Shown here: one piece after another, positions 3,043 to 20,522 of the stretch
Position numbering within the stretch: the stretch's first letter is position 1
Layout of the letters: every line of letters begins with the position of its first letter
Source: a virus
Length of the DNA: 64,000 nt
IMG/VR virus record: IMGVR_UViG_3300031746_000002
Coordinates: 74,901-138,900 of that record
Direction: 5' to 3' (one strand)
Position numbers and translations under genes: made by a program
The notes under the pieces: model-generated
Told to the model about the DNA's origin: nothing
The model's input: the letters and a program-made list of their open reading frames with translations, nothing else
Databases searched by the model: none

Positions 3043-5669
3043 AATGGTTATCTAGAATAACAGCAGTTGCAACTGAAGTTGAAGAGGTAACAAAAGAAGT
3101 ATATAGACGTACGTTTGAAGATATGGCAAAGCGCTACATTGAACTCAATAAAAAAATGGAAGAGTCAGAAGCATTAATAGAACAAGCAATAGAAGAGATC
3201 AATGCAAGACTTGAAATAGCAAAGCTTACTGAAGTTACTGAAAAAGAAGAAAATATACTTAAAGCAATGCTCTATAAATTAGAGGAGCATAAAAAATCTA
3301 TAGATGGTTGGGAATTAAAATTAGCTCAAGCAAAAAAGAAATCACTCAAATCAAAAGACTTCATAGAAGAAATAACCGAAACATTTACTGAAATTAATCC
3401 TGCCTATAAGCAAATGATAGAATTCATTGCTTCAAAACATACAGAATATCCAGAACTAGATGATATTGATACTTATAAAATAACTCTTAAAAAAGAAAAG
3501 AAAGCCGGACTTAAGATAAATGCTGCTTTTGTAGAAAAATTTAAAGCAGCATTGGGTAAGTTCATAAACTGGTTAAAAGATAAATGGGACAGCATAATTG
3601 GAAAGATAGATAAAAAATATGCTGACATTGAAGATGCTATGAAAGAATTAGAAAATGCCCCGATGTTGGTAGTTAAAGAAGCTTCAATAGAAAAAGAAGC
3701 AAAATCAATAACAATTGAAGAATATAAAGCTGGAATAGTTGATGCTGTTGAAAGAGCATTTCCAGGAAAAACTTTTAGTATTGGTGTTTCTAGTATTTTA
3801 ACAGATCAGAATTTTCATACTCCTTTAGAGGCATTAGTTGAAGCTGGAATATGTGCAAAGCCAACAAGCAAATATGATTTTATGGCTATCATTGATGCAG
3901 ACAAAAAAGAAGCAGATGATTTAACGACAGTAATAGCTGATCATGATAATAAAATAGGTTATATAGGAATGGGTGGGGATAAAGTTGTTTTAGAAGAAAC
4001 AGCTTCATTAAAAAAAGAAGCAAGAGATTGGAAATATAAAGTTTACATTCCTGTTAATGCAGATAAATATGAAGACCCAACTGATGAAGGTGCATTAGAA
4101 CTTGCAAAAATAGCAGTCAATGAAATTACAAGAATACTTTCTACTGTTCCTGCTGAAAAAGATGATCTTAAAGATCAGTTAGAAAGTGTTAAGATGGAAT
4201 TTGAAGATGTTGTAGCAGTCGAAGATTTCGATGCAGCTTTAGAAACATTATATGATATGGGAGATAGTGAATCTATTTGGATAGAGACATATGAAAAGAA
4301 AGGTTCATTAAGTAAAGAAGCAGAAGAAAAAACTTTTGAAATTCCAACAGGCAATGCTCAGCTAGTATATAGTATAGATGGCATAGTAGGTGAAGAGTTT
4401 GAAGTTGATAGAGGAGGCACAATGCTTCCTATTGGAAAATATAAAGTTGTTACAAAACCAAAAGTTGATGTAGAACATTCTGGACCCTGGGGAACTTATT
4501 CAACTATCCTTGTTGAAAGAATTGCAGGGAATAGAGTTACATTGAAAAAGAAAGCAGGAGCAGTATGTAAAGAATGCGGCAAAGATATGATGGACCCAAC
4601 AGCAAAATCATGTACTTATCCTAAAATTAAGATTGATGGGGAAATCTATAATAGAGACACAGAATATTTTGATGTAAATGAAAGATGTCATGATTGTAAC
4701 ATAGTAAATAAAAAAGGAAACATACATCATTTTGGCTGCGATATTGAAAGATGTCCAAAATGTAACGGTCAAATTATAAGCTGTGAATGCAAAAAAGAAT
4801 TTCTTATTGGTCCAGATGGACAGGAAAGCAAAGCATCAATGAAAAAAGAAGCAACATCATATACTGATTTCTTAACAAACCGCGGAACTGAAATTAAACA
4901 GGCTATTAAGCAGTTAAATGAAATTCATAAAATATATGATAGTCTTTCTGAAGAAATTCTTGATAAAGCTCATGACAAAGTAGCAGGAATATATGATAAA
5001 AATGTTCCAGATTATATAGAAGATTGGGTTGCTGATGGAGATGCAGACGTTGATAGTATTGCTAGTTTAGCACTTAGTAATCAGGACAATTATGGAACAG
5101 AAAAACAAATGATATTATATGCTATAGAAGATTTTTATAACGTGATTATGAGAGGTAGAAAAGAATCTTCATTGAGAAAGAAAGCAGATAGTTATAATCC
5201 TTATATGTATACCTCTCCAACTGGTCCAGCTACTTCAGATGCTAAAACTAATCATAAGAAATATATGGTTAAATTTAAAGAAGCTGATGGGTCATGGAAA
5301 TTCTCTACAATGGAAGATGATCTTGAAGCAGCTAAGTCACAGGCACAAGAAATATATAATAATGAAAAGAAGAAATCAAAGGTAATTGATACTACTACAA
5401 GCAATGTTATCTTTGTTATAGGTGCTGAAAATAGTGAAACACTTAAACGTTATGCAAGTTTAGATGCTGATATTGATGCAATGGAAAAAAATGAACATAA
5501 AAAACATGTTGAAGGATTTAAAAAAGCAGCATCTTTACAAGCTAACATAGAAAAAGAAGTATATCAATGTGATAATTGTCATATCAGGCTTGGTAGATTT
5601 ATAAAGCAGCTTCCAGACAGTTGCCCACGCTGTGGAAAGCAAGTAAAATTTGACAATGTAATAAGGTAG
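3039..5669 (+). CDS. Modular polyprotein with MKWL leader and LxKxA linkers (putative internal head protein)
   Basis: MKWLSRITA; linkers ASIEKEA, ASLKKEA, GSLSKEA, TLKKKA, ASMKKEA, SSLRKKA; Cys-rich Zn modules. Confidence 0.7.
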   Translation: MKWLSRITAVATEVEEVTKEVYRRTFEDMAKRYIELNKKMEESEALIEQAIEEINARLEIAKLTEVTEKEENILKAMLYKLEEHKKSIDGWELKLAQAKKKSLKSKDFIEEITETFTEINPAYKQMIEFIASKHTEYPELDDIDTYKITLKKEKKAGLKINAAFVEKFKAALGKFINWLKDKWDSIIGKIDKKYADIEDAMKELENAPMLVVKEASIEKEAKSITIEEYKAGIVDAVERAFPGKTFSIGVSSILTDQNFHTPLEALVEAGICAKPTSKYDFMAIIDADKKEADDLTTVIADHDNKIGYIGMGGDKVVLEETASLKKEARDWKYKVYIPVNADKYEDPTDEGALELAKIAVNEITRILSTVPAEKDDLKDQLESVKMEFEDVVAVEDFDAALETLYDMGDSESIWIETYEKKGSLSKEAEEKTFEIPTGNAQLVYSIDGIVGEEFEVDRGGTMLPIGKYKVVTKPKVDVEHSGPWGTYSTILVERIAGNRVTLKKKAGAVCKECGKDMMDPTAKSCTYPKIKIDGEIYNRDTEYFDVNERCHDCNIVNKKGNIHHFGCDIERCPKCNGQIISCECKKEFLIGPDGQESKASMKKEATSYTDFLTNRGTEIKQAIKQLNEIHKIYDSLSEEILDKAHDKVAGIYDKNVPDYIEDWVADGDADVDSIASLALSNQDNYGTEKQMILYAIEDFYNVIMRGRKESSLRKKADSYNPYMYTSPTGPATSDAKTNHKKYMVKFKEADGSWKFSTMEDDLEAAKSQAQEIYNNEKKKSKVIDTTTSNVIFVIGAENSETLKRYASLDADIDAMEKNEHKKHVEGFKKAASLQANIEKEVYQCDNCHIRLGRFIKQLPDSCPRCGKQVKFDNVIR

Positions 5670-5672
5670 GCT

Positions 5673-8591
5673 ATGCCACGCAAAGCAAATATTAGAGGTG
5701 TTGATTTTATAAAACCAAAGAAAACAAAAGAAAAATCACTCTTCGATTCTTTTGATAGATCAGTAGAAGCAAAGAGCAGCAACTTAGGAATATATTGGGA
5801 AGAAAATCCTGTTGGAATTAGAGAATTTGTAACAAGCTTTGACCATATGGGAATACCCAATGGTTTGAGTGATGAACAGTACGAACCATTAGAATTTTTA
5901 TTTGGAAATGAACCAAAGAAAATTTTTGATAATGGTAACACAACAGGAATTGAAGAGTGGGGCAAAGGATGTATAAGCGGTGATGCTAAAATTAGGGATG
6001 TAGAAACAGGAACAGAATATACTATTGAACAACTATATAAATTAAAAAAAGAAATAACAGTACAATGTATTGATGAAGAAAATAAAATTAGAATATCGCA
6101 AGCATCAGTTCCTTGGATTAAAGGAATAGATGATTTATATGAAGTAAAAACAAAATTGGGAAAATCAATTAAAGTAACTAAAGAACATAGATTTAAAACA
6201 CAAAATGGCTGGAAACAATTAAAAGATCTTAGAGTTGACAGCGTTATATTAGATGACAATGATAAAGTAGAATGTAAGTTATGTGGAGAATATGTAAAAT
6301 CGATTCCAAACCACTTACAATGGAATCATCCAGATATAAAGTTAAATGATTATAAATTATTATTTCCTAAAGCAAAGGTATTATCAGATACATGGAAAAA
6401 ATCATGTGGCAGAGCTGGAAAGAAACATTGGGCATTTGGAAAAAAACATCTTAATTCTGGTATAGGATTTGTTAAATATAATAAATCGAGAACTGGTAAA
6501 ACATTTAATGAATATTTTGGTAAAGAAAAAAGTAAGCAAATAAAAGAAAAAATAAAAAATACAGTAAATAAAAATAATAGTCTTTTAACATTAGCTGAGT
6601 CTAAAAAAAAATATGGACGATCTGGTAAAAAACATCATAATTGGAAAGGCGGCATTAGTTATACTTATAAAATCGGTGATACTTATTTAGGAACATTTGG
6701 AAAAAAGCTTCATGAATATATTAGGAAAAGAGATAAAAATCATTGTAAGTTTTGTAAGAAACCAGTTAAAAATAAATTCAAAGGTGATATACATCATATA
6801 AATTATAACAAACTAGATGGTAGATTAGAAAATTTAATATTACTTTGTAAAAGCTGTCATTGTAAAACGCAATATGGTTTACGAAAAGTATGGATCGAAA
6901 AATGTTTAAATAAGATAATTAAACCCAAATGGGACACTATAACATCTATTACATTTTGGAAACATGATAAATATTATGATTTGGAAGTTGAAAAATATCA
7001 TAATTATTTAGCAAATGGTTTATATAACCATAATTCAGGGAAAGATTTAATAGCAGCAATTGGCTTATGTTATATCACACATGTTTTGCTTTGTTGTTCA
7101 GACCCACAGAAGTTGTTAGGAATAGGCGATATATCTGGGGAACCAATTGACTTTGTAAATGTAGCAACAAATGCAGACCAAGCATCAACAGTATTCTTTA
7201 CAAAGTTTACTGAAAGAGTAAAGCGTTGGAAATGGTTAAAGGATAAATATAATTTTAAAGTATCAGGACGAAGTTTAAATGCATTGACTACTAATAAGAA
7301 TAAGGAAATAAATTTATTCAATGATGATGTAGTAATAACATCAAACGGTATTTTATTTCCAAAGATGATAAGAGCATTCAGTGGTAACTCAGAGCAAGAA
7401 GCCCAGGAAGGTAAGAACTATTTAGTATTCATATTAGATGAAGCCAGCGGCTTTGCAGAGACAAAGACATTAAGTGCAGAGAAGATATATAAATCATTAA
7501 AGAGTTCAGCAAGAACAAGGTTTGGTGATAAGTGGAAATGCTTCATACTTTCATTTCCAAGATATAAAGATGATTTCATAGAAGTAATGCACAAAAAAGC
7601 AAAGAAACATTTGCATTGGCACACAGCAAAATTAGCAACATGGCAAGTAAAACCACCACATTGTTTCAGCGGCAAATGGTTTGAATATGAAGGACATAGA
7701 ATTCCATTAGAATACAAAGAAGATTTTGATGATGATCCAAGAGATGCAAAAGCAAAGTTCTTATGTATTCCGCCAGATGCAATTAATCCATTTATAGAAG
7801 AACAGGAAAAGATAGAGCTTTGTATAAATAAACAACGAAAGCAAATGTTCACATGTTATGATTCTCAGAAAGATAATTACGTACAGAAGAAACTAACGTT
7901 AGCACCTTGGATTAGAGTATTGCCAGCACATACTTATACATTGACTATAGACTTAGGAGTTAGTCAATGTAGTTGCGCATTATCATTGCATCATAAAGAA
8001 ATAAAAGGAAATATAGATATAATAGTACAAGACCTTGTAACAAGATGGGAGCCTATACCAAAGAAAGGATTGAGAGTAGATTTCTTTAATGTAGGTTCAA
8101 CCATTTCAATGCTTGTAAAAACATTGGGAGTAAAACAAGTAAGAGTATTCTTTGACCAATGGCAGAGTGAATTACTAATAAACATTTTAAAGAAGATAGG
8201 TATCAATGCTTTAATATATTATTTGGGTTATGAAAACTATCAAGACTTAAGAGAAAGAATTTATACAGGCAGAATAGACCTGCTTGATTATGCACCACAA
8301 ACAAAAGAGTTAAAAGAGATTTCATTAATTAAAGGTAATAAAGTAGACAGACCAGAAAATGGAACAAAGGATATTTGCGATACAGTAGCTGGTGCAATTT
8401 ATGTTCTAACAAAATATGATGAAGAGCATAGAGATAATAGGAAAGATAAAAGAGCACTGCTAGCAAAATTAAATGACGGTGAATTTATTGGATCTAATAT
8501 TTCTGAAATTGATGGTGAAGGAAATTATATTAAGCAAGAAGAAAATGCATTTGAAGGCGCAATCAGCGTATGGGATATTGCTGGTAAATAA
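5673..8591 (+). CDS. terL: Terminase large subunit (intein-containing)
   Basis: Walker A WGKG|SGKD after splicing, Walker B FILDEA, coupling motif LSFP, nuclease TIDLG...FDQWQS...KDICD. Confidence 0.9.
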   Translation: MPRKANIRGVDFIKPKKTKEKSLFDSFDRSVEAKSSNLGIYWEENPVGIREFVTSFDHMGIPNGLSDEQYEPLEFLFGNEPKKIFDNGNTTGIEEWGKGCISGDAKIRDVETGTEYTIEQLYKLKKEITVQCIDEENKIRISQASVPWIKGIDDLYEVKTKLGKSIKVTKEHRFKTQNGWKQLKDLRVDSVILDDNDKVECKLCGEYVKSIPNHLQWNHPDIKLNDYKLLFPKAKVLSDTWKKSCGRAGKKHWAFGKKHLNSGIGFVKYNKSRTGKTFNEYFGKEKSKQIKEKIKNTVNKNNSLLTLAESKKKYGRSGKKHHNWKGGISYTYKIGDTYLGTFGKKLHEYIRKRDKNHCKFCKKPVKNKFKGDIHHINYNKLDGRLENLILLCKSCHCKTQYGLRKVWIEKCLNKIIKPKWDTITSITFWKHDKYYDLEVEKYHNYLANGLYNHNSGKDLIAAIGLCYITHVLLCCSDPQKLLGIGDISGEPIDFVNVATNADQASTVFFTKFTERVKRWKWLKDKYNFKVSGRSLNALTTNKNKEINLFNDDVVITSNGILFPKMIRAFSGNSEQEAQEGKNYLVFILDEASGFAETKTLSAEKIYKSLKSSARTRFGDKWKCFILSFPRYKDDFIEVMHKKAKKHLHWHTAKLATWQVKPPHCFSGKWFEYEGHRIPLEYKEDFDDDPRDAKAKFLCIPPDAINPFIEEQEKIELCINKQRKQMFTCYDSQKDNYVQKKLTLAPWIRVLPAHTYTLTIDLGVSQCSCALSLHHKEIKGNIDIIVQDLVTRWEPIPKKGLRVDFFNVGSTISMLVKTLGVKQVRVFFDQWQSELLINILKKIGINALIYYLGYENYQDLRERIYTGRIDLLDYAPQTKELKEISLIKGNKVDRPENGTKDICDTVAGAIYVLTKYDEEHRDNRKDKRALLAKLNDGEFIGSNISEIDGEGNYIKQEENAFEGAISVWDIAGK
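5970..7034 (+). mobile_element. Intein (355 aa) with HNH endonuclease
   Basis: Starts CISGD, block B VTKEHRF, ends YYDLEV...NGLYNHN followed by Ser+1; internal CKFC...DIHHINYNK...NLILLCKSCH. Confidence 0.93.
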
Positions 8592-11684: not shown

Positions 11685-13616
11685 ATGGCAAAGTTAGAAG
11701 ATTTTAGTGAAGCACAAAAAAAACGTGCTATAGAACGTTTGGAAAAATTAAATCCTTTAAGTCTTAAAAGGCCTTTACATAAGGGTGAAGAAAATATAGC
11801 TTCTAAAGTAGAGGAACAAATATTTAAAAGACAGGCAGCATTGAAAAGAGAAGCTGGAGACTCTTATTCATTTTCAATGGATTCTACAGCAGGTGTTTCA
11901 AGAGTACCCATTCTATTTGTAGACCCACTATTTGACCCAGTCTTGTTGTTATTTCCTACAGGCGATCTTGAACAATTAAATAAACGGTTACGACATTATT
12001 ATATGTATCATTATTTAGTAGGGAATTTAATAGACCTACACAGCGAATTTCCATTGTCTGATCATGTGCTTGAATGTGAAGATGATAGCATAAAGAAATA
12101 TTACAATGATTTCAAAGACAGAATAGGTGCATTAGATATAATGACACAACAGTTAAGAGGTTATCATTTATTGGGAGAAGCAGTACATTATGGGAACTGG
12201 GATAACAATAACTTTGAATGGGAAAGCTTCACACAGTTCCAGCCAGAAGATATAGAATTGATGGATACGTTTGTAAGTCAACCAGTATTCTTCTTGAAAG
12301 TAAAGAAAGACTCTGAAATAGGAAAGATAGTAAACAACACTTCAGATATGGTAGCAAGAGCAATCACTGAATTACTTCCAGATAAATTAGTATCAGCAGC
12401 AAGGACAGGAAGAAGGGTGCATCTCGATTCAAGCCGAGTTTTGTACTTTGCTAATAAGCCAGAAGGAAGTATGAAGCGTGGACATTCATTGCTTAAAAGA
12501 TGTTTGAAAGATCTAGTGCATGAAGATAGGTTAAGGTTACTTCAACAGAGTTTTATTGAAAGACATTCAAAGCCAATTAAGATATTTAAAGTGGGTTCAA
12601 AAGAACTTGGTTGGATCCCATCAGACAGGCATATGGTGAAACTGCAGAAGTTACTTGCGCAAGCAGCAAATGACCCTGATTTCAATTTAATATATCACCC
12701 ATTCTTAGAGGTTGATTATGTAGGGACAAAAGAAAAGATCACAAACCTCAGTGAAGAATTCGATGATGTACAGAAAAAGATTATGGTAGGATTATTTGCT
12801 AATGATGCATTAGTGCATGGGGAAGCCACTACTTACGCATCTAGTACTGTTCAGCTTAAAATCATAATGTATAGATACTTAGCACAGAGGGCGAAGCTGG
12901 AGAACCTTTGGAAGTATAGAGTGTATCTACCATTAGCAATGAAGAGGGGATTTGTAAGAAGGAGTAAAGCAGAGATAGATCACAATCTACGAATTAATAG
13001 TAAGCTTGATAAATATATAAAGGTTAAAGGACAGGATAGATTAATTGAAGCAGAATTTGTAACAGGTTCTCAAGGACAGAGACTTAATGGTGATGATGGT
13101 AAACCTTTATTAAGGATAGGGAATTCTGTTTATAGAGGCAGTGAATATGATAAATATATAATCCCAGAATATATTTGGCAGAAGAGGAACTTAGTAGACA
13201 GTTCATCTGAAAGGGACATGTTAAGACAACTTAGAGATAATAGTGAAATTCCATTTGAGATGATTGCAGATGCAATGGGTTGGGATATGAAGCATATTGA
13301 AGACATGCTTAAGAAAGAACAGTCAACAGTATTTGATCCAAAATACCGTGCAATAGTAGATGAAAAAACAAAAGATGATGATGCTTATAAAGAGCAGATA
13401 CTTTTAAAGAAGACTCCAGAAGAGGCATTGAAAGAATTAGAAAGACAAAAGCAGAAAGAGAAAGCACCAGTGGTTGAACAAGAAACAGCAGAACAACCTG
13501 AATTAAAAATTCCTGCTAAAGAAGAGACCCCAGAATTACCGCCAGAAGAGGGCGAAAAGAAAGAACCAAAGAAACCCCGAACACCAGTAGGTGGCGAGGA
13601 AACGATAAAGGAATAA
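11685..13616 (+). CDS. Portal protein
   Basis: Position after TerL, 643 aa; LIDLHSEFP, LLGEAV..G.W and GHSLL.RCLK.L...D.LR portal-like motifs; acidic/Pro tail; AALKREA near the N-terminus. Confidence 0.8.
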   Translation: MAKLEDFSEAQKKRAIERLEKLNPLSLKRPLHKGEENIASKVEEQIFKRQAALKREAGDSYSFSMDSTAGVSRVPILFVDPLFDPVLLLFPTGDLEQLNKRLRHYYMYHYLVGNLIDLHSEFPLSDHVLECEDDSIKKYYNDFKDRIGALDIMTQQLRGYHLLGEAVHYGNWDNNNFEWESFTQFQPEDIELMDTFVSQPVFFLKVKKDSEIGKIVNNTSDMVARAITELLPDKLVSAARTGRRVHLDSSRVLYFANKPEGSMKRGHSLLKRCLKDLVHEDRLRLLQQSFIERHSKPIKIFKVGSKELGWIPSDRHMVKLQKLLAQAANDPDFNLIYHPFLEVDYVGTKEKITNLSEEFDDVQKKIMVGLFANDALVHGEATTYASSTVQLKIIMYRYLAQRAKLENLWKYRVYLPLAMKRGFVRRSKAEIDHNLRINSKLDKYIKVKGQDRLIEAEFVTGSQGQRLNGDDGKPLLRIGNSVYRGSEYDKYIIPEYIWQKRNLVDSSSERDMLRQLRDNSEIPFEMIADAMGWDMKHIEDMLKKEQSTVFDPKYRAIVDEKTKDDDAYKEQILLKKTPEEALKELERQKQKEKAPVVEQETAEQPELKIPAKEETPELPPEEGEKKEPKKPRTPVGGEETIKE

Positions 13617-14021: not shown

Positions 14022-14267
14022 ATGAGTCAGGTTGAAGAAAGAGTAAAAGACTTGATTGATGAATTGTCAGGAATAAGTGGAAATGAAATAGTTTCTACTG
14101 ATCGTATTGAAGAAGATTTATGCATTGATGAATTAGATAAAGTAGAATTGATGATGTCTATTGAAGATGAATTTGTGCTAGATGGAATATCAGATGAAGA
14201 TACTGAGAAAATAAAAACAGTGCAAGACTTAGTGGATTATGTAGAGAAGAATAAACAAGATGAATAA
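14022..14267 (+). CDS. Acyl carrier protein-like, lacking the attachment Ser
   Basis: VEERVK...EDLCIDELDKVELMMSIEDEF..ISDED.EKIKTVQD aligns with AcpP; DSL reads DEL. Confidence 0.85.
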   Translation: MSQVEERVKDLIDELSGISGNEIVSTDRIEEDLCIDELDKVELMMSIEDEFVLDGISDEDTEKIKTVQDLVDYVEKNKQDE

Positions 14268-15833: not shown

Positions 15834-15890
15834 ATGTTTACCCGATACAAAAATATAAATAAAAAAACTAGGGTAAAAAAGGAGAACAAA

Positions 15891-16202
15891 ATGGAAACAG
15901 ATGCAGAAATTATTAAAGGGTTAGAAATGAAGAACAAGAAGTTAGTAGAGCGAAATGATGAACTACAAAAAGAAAAGCAAGATTTACAAGCAACAGTAGA
16001 TGAGTTATATGTACCATTAGCATTTGAGTATAAAGAAGGAAGAAAAACATTGCTAATAAAACTTGGATCAAAAGAACGTGGTTGGTTTCCAAGCGGTAGA
16101 CATTTTGCAGCAGCACAGAAACAATTCAAAGCTTGTATGTTGGATAAGAAATTCAATATCATATTATATCACTATGCTATTGAAACACAAATAGTAGAAT
16201 AA
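15891..16202 (+). CDS. Coiled coil + portal-segment-like protein
   Basis: AGGAG SD before ATG 15891; the C-terminal half aligns with an internal portal segment (KxGSKExGWxPSxRH). Confidence 0.7.
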   Translation: METDAEIIKGLEMKNKKLVERNDELQKEKQDLQATVDELYVPLAFEYKEGRKTLLIKLGSKERGWFPSGRHFAAAQKQFKACMLDKKFNIILYHYAIETQIVE

Positions 16203-16203
16203 A

Positions 16204-16278
16204 CGGGGTATAGCTCAGTTGGCTAGAGCACACGGTTTGGGGCCGTGGGGTCCGTCAGTTCGAATCTGACTACCCCGA
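16204..16278 (+). tRNA. tRNA-Pro (TGG), CCA not encoded
   Basis: Acceptor CGGGGTA/TACCCCG, D-arm GCTC/GAGC, anticodon stem CACGG/CCGTG with loop TTTGGGG, T-loop TTCGAAT. Confidence 0.95.
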
Positions 16279-16294: not shown

Positions 16295-16939
16295 ATGCCA
16301 AAAGGACAAATTGCTTGGAATAAAGGATTAACAAAAGAAACAGATGAGCGAGTTGCATTAATAGGAAAAAGCTCGGGTAGGACAAGAATAGGAATGGTAG
16401 GATCGTTTAAAGGAAAACATCATTCTAAACAATCACGTAAAAAAATTAGTAAGAAAATGATGGGTATGGTACATTCTAAAGAACGTCGTTTAAATGAAAG
16501 TAAAGGATATAATCATTCTGAGCAGCATCGTCTTAAAATAAGTATAGCAGCAGCTAAACAAGCTATACAAAATAAACAAGATCATAAATGGAGTTGGGGT
16601 AAATCGGGTTGGTTTTATTCTAAAAAGAATAATAAAAGATTTAGATATTTATCTAGTATTGAATTACAATGTTTAAAATTTTTAGAAAGTAAAGAAGATG
16701 TTTTAAAATATCAAACTAATCCATTAAGAATACTTTATACATATCAAATGCAACAAAGAAATTATATACCCGATATTTTGGTTGAATATAATAATGGTAA
16801 AAAAATATTAATAGAAGTAAAGCATAATAAAGGTTTGAAGAATAATATAGTTCAAATTAAAGCAAAAGCAGCTATAAAATATTGTAAAGAAAATAATATG
16901 GAATATAAATTTTATACAGAGTCTAAATTGCTGATGTAG
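16295..16939 (+). CDS. Free-standing homing endonuclease (NUMOD3-like + TnsA-like)
   Basis: AWNKGLTKETD, GKHHS, FYSKKN, YIPDI...LIEVK. Confidence 0.75.
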   Translation: MPKGQIAWNKGLTKETDERVALIGKSSGRTRIGMVGSFKGKHHSKQSRKKISKKMMGMVHSKERRLNESKGYNHSEQHRLKISIAAAKQAIQNKQDHKWSWGKSGWFYSKKNNKRFRYLSSIELQCLKFLESKEDVLKYQTNPLRILYTYQMQQRNYIPDILVEYNNGKKILIEVKHNKGLKNNIVQIKAKAAIKYCKENNMEYKFYTESKLLM

Positions 16940-18707: not shown

Positions 18708-20522
18708 ATGGAAATAGAAAAAGTGGTGAAACAGTTACTAAAAGCAAAGGAAGCTTATTACAATGAAACACCTATAATGTCAGATAATGAGTTTGATAAG
18801 TTAGAAGACCAGCTCAAAGCAGCAGACCCAAACAATGAATACTTTTCAGTAGTAGGAATTCCAACCGAAGGAAAGAAAATCAAACATTCAATCCCAATGC
18901 TTTCAATGAATAAAGTTAAAACAGCTAAAGAAGCAGTCAACTGGTTTGAAAAATTAAATGTTGAAAGCAATGTTGTAATGGAACCAAAGATAGATGGGGC
19001 AAGCGGGGAAATCTTTTACAGAAATGGAAAGCTCGAATATGTTGCAACAAGAGGAGATGGTGGAGAAGGAAGGGACATCACTCATGCAGCAAAGTATCTT
19101 TCAACAATACCAAAGACAATCAGTGCAAAATGTAATGTTTATGTAAGAGGCGAATTCTACTTTCCTAAAAATAATCCAGTAGTAAAATCAAAACTCAGAA
19201 ACAATGCATCAGGAATATTGAACAGGAAAACAGACCTTGAAAATCTTAAGTATCTCAAATTCGTTGCTTATCAGTTATTTGGAATTCCTCAGAAAACAGT
19301 AAGTGATAGTTTAATAGATTTAAGAGCACTGGGATTTAACATCATCTCATATAACATAAAGGATATAAGCAAACTGGAAGCAGAGTACAAATTTTATTTA
19401 GATGTTTTAAGGGATGAATGGGAATATGAAACAGATGGAATGGTACTTGTAATAAATGAAATAGGACTTCATGAAGAAATAGACAGCAGGTGGAAAGTAG
19501 AACATCATCATCACTATGCAATGGCATTGAAACCACCTTCAGAAGGAAAAGAAACACAACTGATGGGAATAAGTTGGGGAGTAACAAGGTATGGAAGTAT
19601 AATCCCAGTAGCAGTGCTTGACCCAATAGAAGTTGGTGGAGTAGAAATAAGTAGAGCAGCTTTAAATAACTATCAATACTTATTGGATTTGAAATTAAAC
19701 ATCGGTGATAAGCTGTACATAGAAAGAGCAAACGATGTAATACCTCATGTATCAGAGAATAGAAGCGGCTCAACAAAGTCAAACATAACATTGAAATATT
19801 GCCCATACTGCAATTCAACATTAGTCAGAGATGGAATTCATCTTAAATGCGTTAATAAAGATTGTGGCGAACAAAAGATACAGCAGATAATATTCTGGTG
19901 CAGTAAAGCAGAAATGGAAGGAGTTAAAGAAGGAACAGTAAGAAAACTATATGATACTACAGCAATTCGAAACATCAAAGATTTATATCATTTAACAAAG
20001 CATGATTTAGCAATTATACCAGGGTTTGCACTTACAAGCATTACAAAGATATTAAATGAAATAGAGAAATCAAGAACTGTTACATTTGCAAAGTTCATTG
20101 AAAGATTAGGCATCCCAATGGTAGGAATTAAAGCAGTAGAAAGTCTTGGTATAGAAACATTAGAAGATTTCATGCATTTCAATGATGACACTTATAGGAC
20201 AGGTCAAGAAGTAATGGACTGGACTTCTAAGCATATGGGAATGTTTAAGTTATTGCTCGAGGAGTTACATATCATAGACAAGGTAAAGATCGAAAAGAAG
20301 TCATCCAGGGGAACAGTGTGTATGACTGGTACAGGACCCAAAGCAAGGAAAGAACTCATTGCAGATATAAATAATAAAGGATATGAATTTGTGGACCACA
20401 TTACAAATGATTTAGGAATTCTTATTTGCGAAGATATTAATGGGAATAGCAGCAAACTACAGAAAGCAAAGAAGTGTGGAATTACGTTAATGAGTTATGA
20501 AGAGTTCTTCACTGAAAGTTAA
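18708..20522 (+). CDS. ligA: NAD-dependent DNA ligase
   Basis: AYYN...SD.EFD, EPKIDG, TRGDG, VRGE, ERANDVIP, CPYC...C..DC Zn finger, C-terminal BRCT. Confidence 0.95.
   Translation: MEIEKVVKQLLKAKEAYYNETPIMSDNEFDKLEDQLKAADPNNEYFSVVGIPTEGKKIKHSIPMLSMNKVKTAKEAVNWFEKLNVESNVVMEPKIDGASGEIFYRNGKLEYVATRGDGGEGRDITHAAKYLSTIPKTISAKCNVYVRGEFYFPKNNPVVKSKLRNNASGILNRKTDLENLKYLKFVAYQLFGIPQKTVSDSLIDLRALGFNIISYNIKDISKLEAEYKFYLDVLRDEWEYETDGMVLVINEIGLHEEIDSRWKVEHHHHYAMALKPPSEGKETQLMGISWGVTRYGSIIPVAVLDPIEVGGVEISRAALNNYQYLLDLKLNIGDKLYIERANDVIPHVSENRSGSTKSNITLKYCPYCNSTLVRDGIHLKCVNKDCGEQKIQQIIFWCSKAEMEGVKEGTVRKLYDTTAIRNIKDLYHLTKHDLAIIPGFALTSITKILNEIEKSRTVTFAKFIERLGIPMVGIKAVESLGIETLEDFMHFNDDTYRTGQEVMDWTSKHMGMFKLLLEELHIIDKVKIEKKSSRGTVCMTGTGPKARKELIADINNKGYEFVDHITNDLGILICEDINGNSSKLQKAKKCGITLMSYEEFFTES

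Follow-up and report, generated by a model that had tools for sequence, protein, structure and literature searches.

The window analysed here (the whole stretch of DNA under study, i.e. the 64 kb at the end of an IMG/VR virus record of 138.9 kb) contains a gene for a small protein of 103 amino acids, P0001, whose C-terminal domain is, as judged from homology and predicted structure, an ancient paralogue of the clip of the phage portal protein and of the final turns of the stem helix that leads into it. A full portal combines wing, two-helix stem, clip and crown in one chain of about 400–800 amino acids and forms a dodecameric ring, of which the clip is the outward-facing base. Its sequence relationships place P0001 in a family of small accessory proteins that has not been described before. 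The completeness of the virus record was estimated at 68%; the window has a G+C content of about 32% and carries its long open reading frames (ORFs) nearly all on the plus strand, and its DNA was present in five sediment runs, all of them DNA (metagenomes).

The gene for P0001

The features of the gene and its immediate surroundings, with their basis, are the following:

15879–15884, plus strand: Shine-Dalgarno-like AAGGAG, 6 nt before the ATG of P0001 (read from the sequence)
15891–16202, plus strand: coding sequence of P0001, 103 amino acids, stop codon included (ORF and translation)
15900–16019, plus strand: N-terminal long helix with heptad pattern, residues 4–43 (AF2, heptad score, 7-codon indel in the orthologue)
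16020–16199, plus strand: clip-like domain, residues 44–103, conserved core of the family with strand, hairpin, helix and strand (BLASTP, hhalign, AF2)
16204–16278, plus strand: tRNA-Pro (UGG), starting 1 base after the stop codon of P0001 (ARAGORN)

With an ATG at 15891, a TAA stop codon at 16200–16202 and the AAGGAG upstream, the stand-alone ORF exists as the original prediction had described it. A longer reading from 15834 is not supported, because the orthologue on the JGI contig L017 begins at the same methionine as the one at 15891. A scan for promoters and terminators yielded 27 sites against 26.3 expected and is thus uninformative. The tRNA-Pro is a neighbour of the gene.

The L017 orthologue is 73% identical to P0001 (tblastn), and substitution rates were calculated for this one pair by the method of Nei-Gojobori:

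Region; codons; dN; dS; dN/dS
Whole gene; 95; 0.163; 0.815; 0.20
Helix; 36; 0.266; 1.207; 0.22
Clip-like part; 59; 0.107; 0.647; 0.17

The sole indel between the two sequences comprises exactly 7 codons (one heptad), lies inside the helix and leaves the heptad register intact. Variants of the gene in two other sediment runs (X2 and X3) have intact frames with no stop codons. The nine changed codons of the X2 variant result in three amino-acid changes (M13E, V19I and E24A), all of them in the helix; the X3 variant has two differences in the clip-like part, both synonymous. At the level of codon comparison, these data establish the ORF as a real gene under purifying selection. The view that the diverged copy looks selected was thereby borne out, by the ratios for the whole gene and the clip-like part. 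On the 5.8-kb contig from run X2, the 11 nucleotides that differ within the gene are all confined to a patch of 53 nt that encodes part of the helix (15911–15963), and the remaining ∼240 nt of the gene (15964–16202) are identical; this mosaic pattern suggests a recombination patch.

Homology between P0001 and the portal

The portal gene of the window and the segment of it that concerns us here are:

11685–13616, plus strand: portal gene, 643 amino acids (phrog_16240 portal, E 2.5e-41; AF2 and Foldseek)
12543–12734, plus strand: portal residues 287–350, homologous to P0001 42–103, end of first stem helix plus clip (hhalign ranges, AF2 secondary structure)

Foldseek matches the AF2 model of the portal to solved structures of the T4, lambda, HFTV1 and G20c portals (E around 1e-9; 155 chains at E ≤ 0.001), and the portal's nearest cultured relative is gp14 of Bacillus phage G, at 26% identity. 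In a pairwise BLASTP comparison, P0001 residues 44–102 aligned with portal residues 289–346 with 22 identities in 59 positions (37%), one gap and an E value of 2e-10. When the alignment of P0001 and 52 small proteins (A1, 53 members) was compared as a profile with that of 38 portals (A2), hhalign returned a probability of 98.7% and an E value of 2e-16 over 64 columns, with P0001 42–103 corresponding to portal 287–350. The peptides that had been aligned in the original prediction are residues 57–102 of the ORF and 302–346 of the portal (12588–12722); the coordinates were right, and the alignment is significant in both the pairwise and the profile comparison. The small-family profile also matched portal ORFs of other phage records, with E values down to 3e-17, which together with the hhalign result places the clip-like domain in homology with bona fide portals. 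In some of these portals the matches extended back to profile position 22–37, i.e. into the helix; on these alignments the C-terminal end of the P0001 helix has its homologue in the end of the first stem helix of the portal. P0001 matches no PHROG portal family and corresponds only to portal residues 287–350, and is therefore not a full-length portal. At the DNA level the likeness of the two genes is confined to one patch of 33 nt (82%), and the 58 aligned codons are 48% identical, which argues for an old homology at the protein level and not for a recent repeat.

Positions conserved in both the small family and the portals are F45, K57, G59, G64, W65, P67, H71, D85, N89 and H94. Two lysines in the helix of the clip-like domain (K77, 58%, and K80, 77%) are conserved in the small family but not in portals, and the small family has LDKK where portals read NDPD. 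The surface of P0001 is thus no faithful copy of that of the portal.

The family of small proteins

An exhaustive phmmer search with P0001 against 1.84 billion representatives gave 53 matches at E ≤ 1e-3, 52 of which are small proteins of 60–208 amino acids; the 53rd, of 1543 amino acids, matches the helix only and was left out of the family. No portal reached this library-wide threshold in the search. The conserved core of A1 reads ...GRPxLxVKLGDxxxGWIPxxxHF....K..K...LDKxYNILLxHY.I. No Pfam-A family and no PHROGs v4 family was common to more than one of the 53 members, two single members touching portal PHROGs at E values of 0.004–0.008. A word-indexed search with A1 returned 19 proteins and no new kind of member, and a search of the ESM Atlas returned only unnamed clusters of similar size. 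There was no match to P0001 by tblastn among 50,697 deposited phages, none in scans of IMG/VR with the single proteins P0001 and portal, and none in a contig search with alignment A4; in phage G, Rctr197k and LR745208 the family profile detected no stand-alone copy. An idea that the domain binds DNA was dropped, the family being not markedly basic (median net charge of the domain +2, as compared to +1 in portal segments).

Predicted structure

The AF2 model of P0001 has a pLDDT of 95.1 and consists of a helix (residues 4–43, pLDDT 94–98), a strand (52–58) with a hairpin, a second helix (69–81) and a final strand (88–94). In the portal model the order is helix 270–295, strand 298–303 with hairpin, helix 314–329, strands 333–336 and 341–346, helix 355–369 and a very long helix 384–421; the mean pLDDT of this model is 70.8, and only 56–77 across the clip stretch. 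The elements of P0001 parallel the stem-clip order of the portal model, the last two strands of the portal being represented by one strand in P0001. The AF2 models have the alpha/beta unit of three strands and one helix after a long stem helix that is given in the published description (PMC12847820). A stem-clip-stem topology has been described for YonE, the portal of SPbeta, where residues 270–325 are treated as the clip region (PMC12847820); the helix 270–295, the strand, helix and strands of 298–346 and the helix 355–369 of our portal model repeat it, in keeping with the original assignment of the segment to the clip by position. The profile of the 38 portals gave a weak match to YonE among the PDB sequences (E 0.027), which served as a hint to the domain border only and puts YonE 316 at about portal 358, just past the P0001-like segment. 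The assignment of the matched portal stretch to the end of the first stem helix and the clip is well supported by sequence homology and predicted secondary structure, and in its model P0001 resembles a first stem helix that runs into a clip and has no return helix after it.

No portal clip was retrieved in structure searches with the model of P0001, so that the clip assignment rests on sequence homology and predicted secondary structure. Foldseek found nothing in the PDB at E ≤ 0.001 and in BFVD a best E value of 0.098, with a few weak 'portal protein' rows; VIA-align (wide) found only look-alikes of the long helix (residues 1–42, Z up to 5.7). The two best, non-significant look-alikes in BFVD are R4TM87 and R4T8M0 (135 and 117 amino acids), both from haloarchaeal tailed viruses; R4T8M0 has 28% identity with P0001 over 58 columns, and the two may be distant members of the same kind.

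The N-terminal helix of P0001 is probably a coiled coil, as had been proposed at the outset. It has leucines at heptad spacing (11, 18, 25, 32 and 39), the second core position being mostly polar; its heptad periodicity has a p value of 0.03, and among the 43 members with at least 21 residues before the domain 24 are periodic at p < 0.05 (1000 shuffles each). The high pLDDT of residues 4–43 and the orthologue indel of exactly 7 codons agree with this. Matches of the helix to DivIC, ZapB and bZIP-type zippers in Pfam were weak (E 0.01–0.05) and all below the curated cut-offs. In the remaining 10 of the 53 the domain is preceded by fewer than 21 residues, and the helix is thus not universal; some of these members may be truncated ORFs.

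Age and origin

In a maximum-likelihood tree, one branch with an SH-aLRT of 99.9 parts the 53 small proteins from 38 portal segments; the tree was built on a domain of about 59 columns, which is few, and most of its inner forks are unresolved. P0001 is 38% identical to the corresponding segment of its own portal, which ranks third of 38 in identity, several other portals being at 36–38%. The claim that P0001 is a copy of this phage's own portal segment did not hold: it belongs to an old, separate family, and P0001 is no closer to the resident portal than to others. The single split and the identity ranking point to one old duplication, without ongoing exchange with the resident portal, and the ranking gives no sign of co-evolution or gene conversion with it. 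We infer that the direction was from portal to small protein, because the clip is integral to all portals.

Distribution and genomic context

Fifty-seven portal loci of the family were found in IMG/VR, and 50 records were searched with the A1 profile. Of the 43 that gave a match, 40 had it only inside the portal ORF (open frames of 432–1452 amino acids). Stand-alone ORFs were present in three of the 50 related records, as one copy in G001 and as a tandem pair of divergent copies in both G012 and G013; in these three the portal was matched as well. Among nine records at least 83% complete, one (G001) has a stand-alone copy. Most of the 50 records are fragments, so that absence is weak evidence for any single record. 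Overall, the distribution of the gene is sporadic and its character accessory. Several portals of the family carry inteins (P0021, P0030, P0039 and P0050, all with PF14528, and P0030 also with PF14890), and open frames of 1000–1450 amino acids, about twice the usual length, occur for the portals of G027, G036, G039, G042–G044, G046 and G047. The record G014 (300,445 bases, rated 98% complete) has two different portal genes, with matches at 115.5 kb (L033) and 264.6 kb (L074) in frames of 580 and 600 amino acids; this could mean that the assembly is chimeric or concatenated, or that the phage has two portals.

Only four genomes and two short contigs allow a view of the genomic context. The four contexts inspected are all from large environmental phages with portals distantly like that of phage G. 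In the window the gene lies 2.3 kb from the portal gene; in G001 this distance is about 25 kb, in G012 about 31 kb. Two family members share one ENA contig of 29 kb. In the window the gene lies in a stretch of about 25 kb with small ORFs and genes of DNA metabolism, between the portal and the genes for head protease and major head protein (38.8–42.9 kb), in the order RHH protein, P0001, tRNA-Pro and NUMOD3/TnsA-like endonuclease. On L017 the order is DUF5662, orthologue, a 78-amino-acid ORF, tRNA-Pro and tRNA-Thr. The G001 copy has small unknown ORFs around it and DUF5662 about 1 kb away, and the neighbours of the G012 copy are the second paralogue and an MmcB-like protein. No conserved neighbour emerged from the contexts compared (window, L017, G001, G012 and G013). 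DUF5662 was considered as a partner and rejected, being near in two contexts (L017 and G001) and absent from the examined parts of G000, G012 and G013.

Several other genes were observed alongside. The gene for the large terminase (TerL, 5673–8591, 972 amino acids) contains an intein with an HNH endonuclease (Intein_splicing, residues 112–454, E 7e-17; HNH, 358–397). The gene directly after the tRNA-Pro (16295–16939) combines a NUMOD3 motif with a TnsA-like PD-(D/E)XK N-terminal domain (E 1.8e-14), and by these domains its product looks like a free-standing homing endonuclease; in four sediment runs its first 70 bases draw a very large number of unrelated contigs, the behaviour expected of a repeated motif that is widespread. 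An 81-amino-acid ORF at 14022–14267 resembles acyl carrier protein, but its translation reads DELD where the phosphopantetheine site would be DSLD. An NAD-dependent DNA ligase is encoded at 18708–20522 (phrog_3869, E 3.6e-134). At 5036–7887 of L003 (G001), 1.5 kb downstream of the clip-like gene, at least eight adjacent small ORFs all start with MNW/MSW/MGW-(V/T/I)-K-K/T-A; from their sequences this run looks like a tandem family of paralogues with a conserved N-terminus.

Possible function

The packaging motor, and after it the tail, attaches to the clip, and host immunity uses this place for landing as well (PMC12847820). The domains at the N terminus of SpbK, a TIR protein of Bacillus, dock on the clip domains of YonE in the assembled ring, which activates SpbK, and the SpbK escape mutation A291P lies in the clip helix of YonE (PMC12847820). 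Portals are sensed by Avs4 and Avs11 (bioRxiv 10.64898/2026.01.04.697583), which upholds the premise, part of the original prediction, that STAND proteins of the Avs4 type sense portals; RAZR assembles around portal rings (PMC13017515). A study of the T7 portal and RelA/SpoT has no bearing on the clip as a binding site (PMC13483052).

P0001 keeps positions that are conserved in portal clips and therefore most likely still makes clip-type contacts; that it is a functional stand-alone clip paralogue working through such contacts we consider fairly probable. It would then imitate the portal clip in soluble form, probably as a multimer held together by its helix, and compete for the factors docking on the clip. 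The preferred target would be an immune sensor of the host that becomes active when it clusters on the 12 clips of a portal once assembled, in the way SpbK does on YonE; binding to a free clip would keep such a sensor occupied while giving it no ring platform. For a patchy accessory gene that has small ORFs around it and in some cases occurs as diverged duplicates, a role in counter-defence or competition is a better fit than one in core assembly. For this reason the immune decoy is ranked first, a competitor for terminase or neck proteins, or a regulator, second, and co-assembly or chaperoning of the portal third; decoy, packaging regulator and inhibitor of competing phages had been the roles suggested in the original prediction. 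The role of decoy, drawn by analogy with SpbK and YonE, is nevertheless doubtful when taken by itself. More doubtful again is the wider proposal that the family constitutes a new class of phage counter-defence, in which free clips would soak up sensors that cluster on rings (SpbK-like, possibly Avs4/Avs11- or RAZR-like) and tandem divergent pairs would be tuned to different sensors; a role other than decoy, competitor or regulator, portal co-assembly or chaperone, or remnant is about equally doubtful.

A soluble clip could also compete with portals for the large terminase or the neck proteins, and so time the packaging of its own phage or block that of co-infecting relatives. The clip is the docking site of terminase and tail machinery (PMC12847820), and the patchy accessory distribution and the tandem divergent copies fit competition between phages as well as they fit anti-defence. 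Yet nothing ties P0001 to terminase, the TerL gene lying 7 kb upstream with other genes between, and, unless its regulation were tight, a mimic able to bind the terminase of its own phage would come at a cost; we rate this reading, whether as packaging regulator or as weapon against rivals, as doubtful to unlikely. Clearly unlikely in our view is that P0001 is a component of assembly or of the virion, whose clip-like domain would join, cap or chaperone portal subunits through the old ring contacts, or whose own ring would stack in the manner of an adaptor. Its descent from the portal, the retention of nearly all positions conserved in portal clips and the presence of a portal of this family in all four genomes with a stand-alone copy agree with such a role, as does the AlphaFold model in which all four portal subdomains, the clip included, contribute contacts between subunits (PMC12847820). 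However, a protein found in one of nine records at least 83% complete would be an unusual structural or assembly protein, its gene sits among small non-structural ORFs away from the protease and major head genes at 38.8–42.9 kb, and the identity ranking shows no sign of co-evolution or gene conversion with the resident portal. Co-folding of P0001 (with A1) and the stem-clip-stem part of the portal (residues 255–385, with A2) gave an ipSAE of 0.00 in both runs, which had no controls and allow no verdict.

The gene might, finally, be the decaying remnant of a partial portal duplication, carried for instance by the neighbouring homing endonuclease. The gene with NUMOD3 and TnsA-like domains is indeed situated just downstream, and the phage is rich in selfish elements, with the HNH intein in TerL and inteins in several of the portal homologues. 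The results contradict such decay, which the original prediction had named as something that would refute it: the 52 small homologues form one old clade, and the frame of P0001 is intact, has a ribosome-binding site and shows a dN/dS of 0.20. No repeat with the portal gene is detectable at the DNA level. Furthermore, the L017 orthologue has no endonuclease adjoining it in the 620 bases downstream and a different gene order around it, and the copies in G001 and G012 sit among other genes with no endonuclease alongside in the DNA examined. The endonuclease is thus no constant companion of the copies, which removes the main argument for a relic of a selfish element, and we regard the remnant as highly improbable.

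Comparison with known systems

In the full-text literature searched, which leaves out most subscription papers, nothing was found on clips that stand alone, on decoys derived from portal fragments or on a 'mini-portal', nor on a mimic that a phage has built out of part of its own structural protein. If P0001 is a decoy, it would be the first counter-defence derived from part of the same structural protein that is sensed by immunity, and could serve in the search for clip-sensing defences of uncultured hosts. Should its role be to regulate the docking of terminase or the assembly of the portal, it would instead be a natural minimal clip and a useful reagent for studying contacts between motor and portal. 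Either way, about 50 clusters of 'hypothetical' small proteins obtain a name and an origin.

Ocr, a DNA mimic, and the nucleotide sponges are anti-defence proteins that work by mimicry or sequestration. Anti-defence of this kind in phages is mentioned in bioRxiv 10.1101/2023.04.06.535777 and 10.1101/2025.06.06.658234. The P0001 family resembles such proteins in being small, accessory, patchy and sometimes duplicated, and, by analogy, would occupy a host factor through likeness to its ligand, although in this family the anti-defence activity is only proposed. With leucine-zipper and coiled-coil modules (DivIC, ZapB, bZIP-like) the helix of P0001 shares the heptad leucines, weak Pfam matches and, in the orthologue, an indel of one heptad; it differs from them in that the Pfam matches are all below the cut-offs and the second core position is mostly polar.

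The closest relatives are the clip domains of portals (the phage's own portal, phage G gp14, T4 gp20, lambda gpB and SPbeta YonE), with which P0001 shares homologous sequence, the order of strand, hairpin, helix and strands after a long helix, and the conserved Gly, Gly-Trp-x-Pro, His, Asp, Asn and His positions. In contrast to the portals, P0001 lacks wing, crown, second stem helix and tunnel loop, has 103 amino acids instead of 643, is encoded by a gene of its own and falls in a separate clade, and its family has its own conserved lysines and LDKK in place of NDPD. As far as the literature searched, Pfam and PHROGs show, P0001 thus represents a known domain in a new and previously undescribed stand-alone family that evolves independently of the portal.
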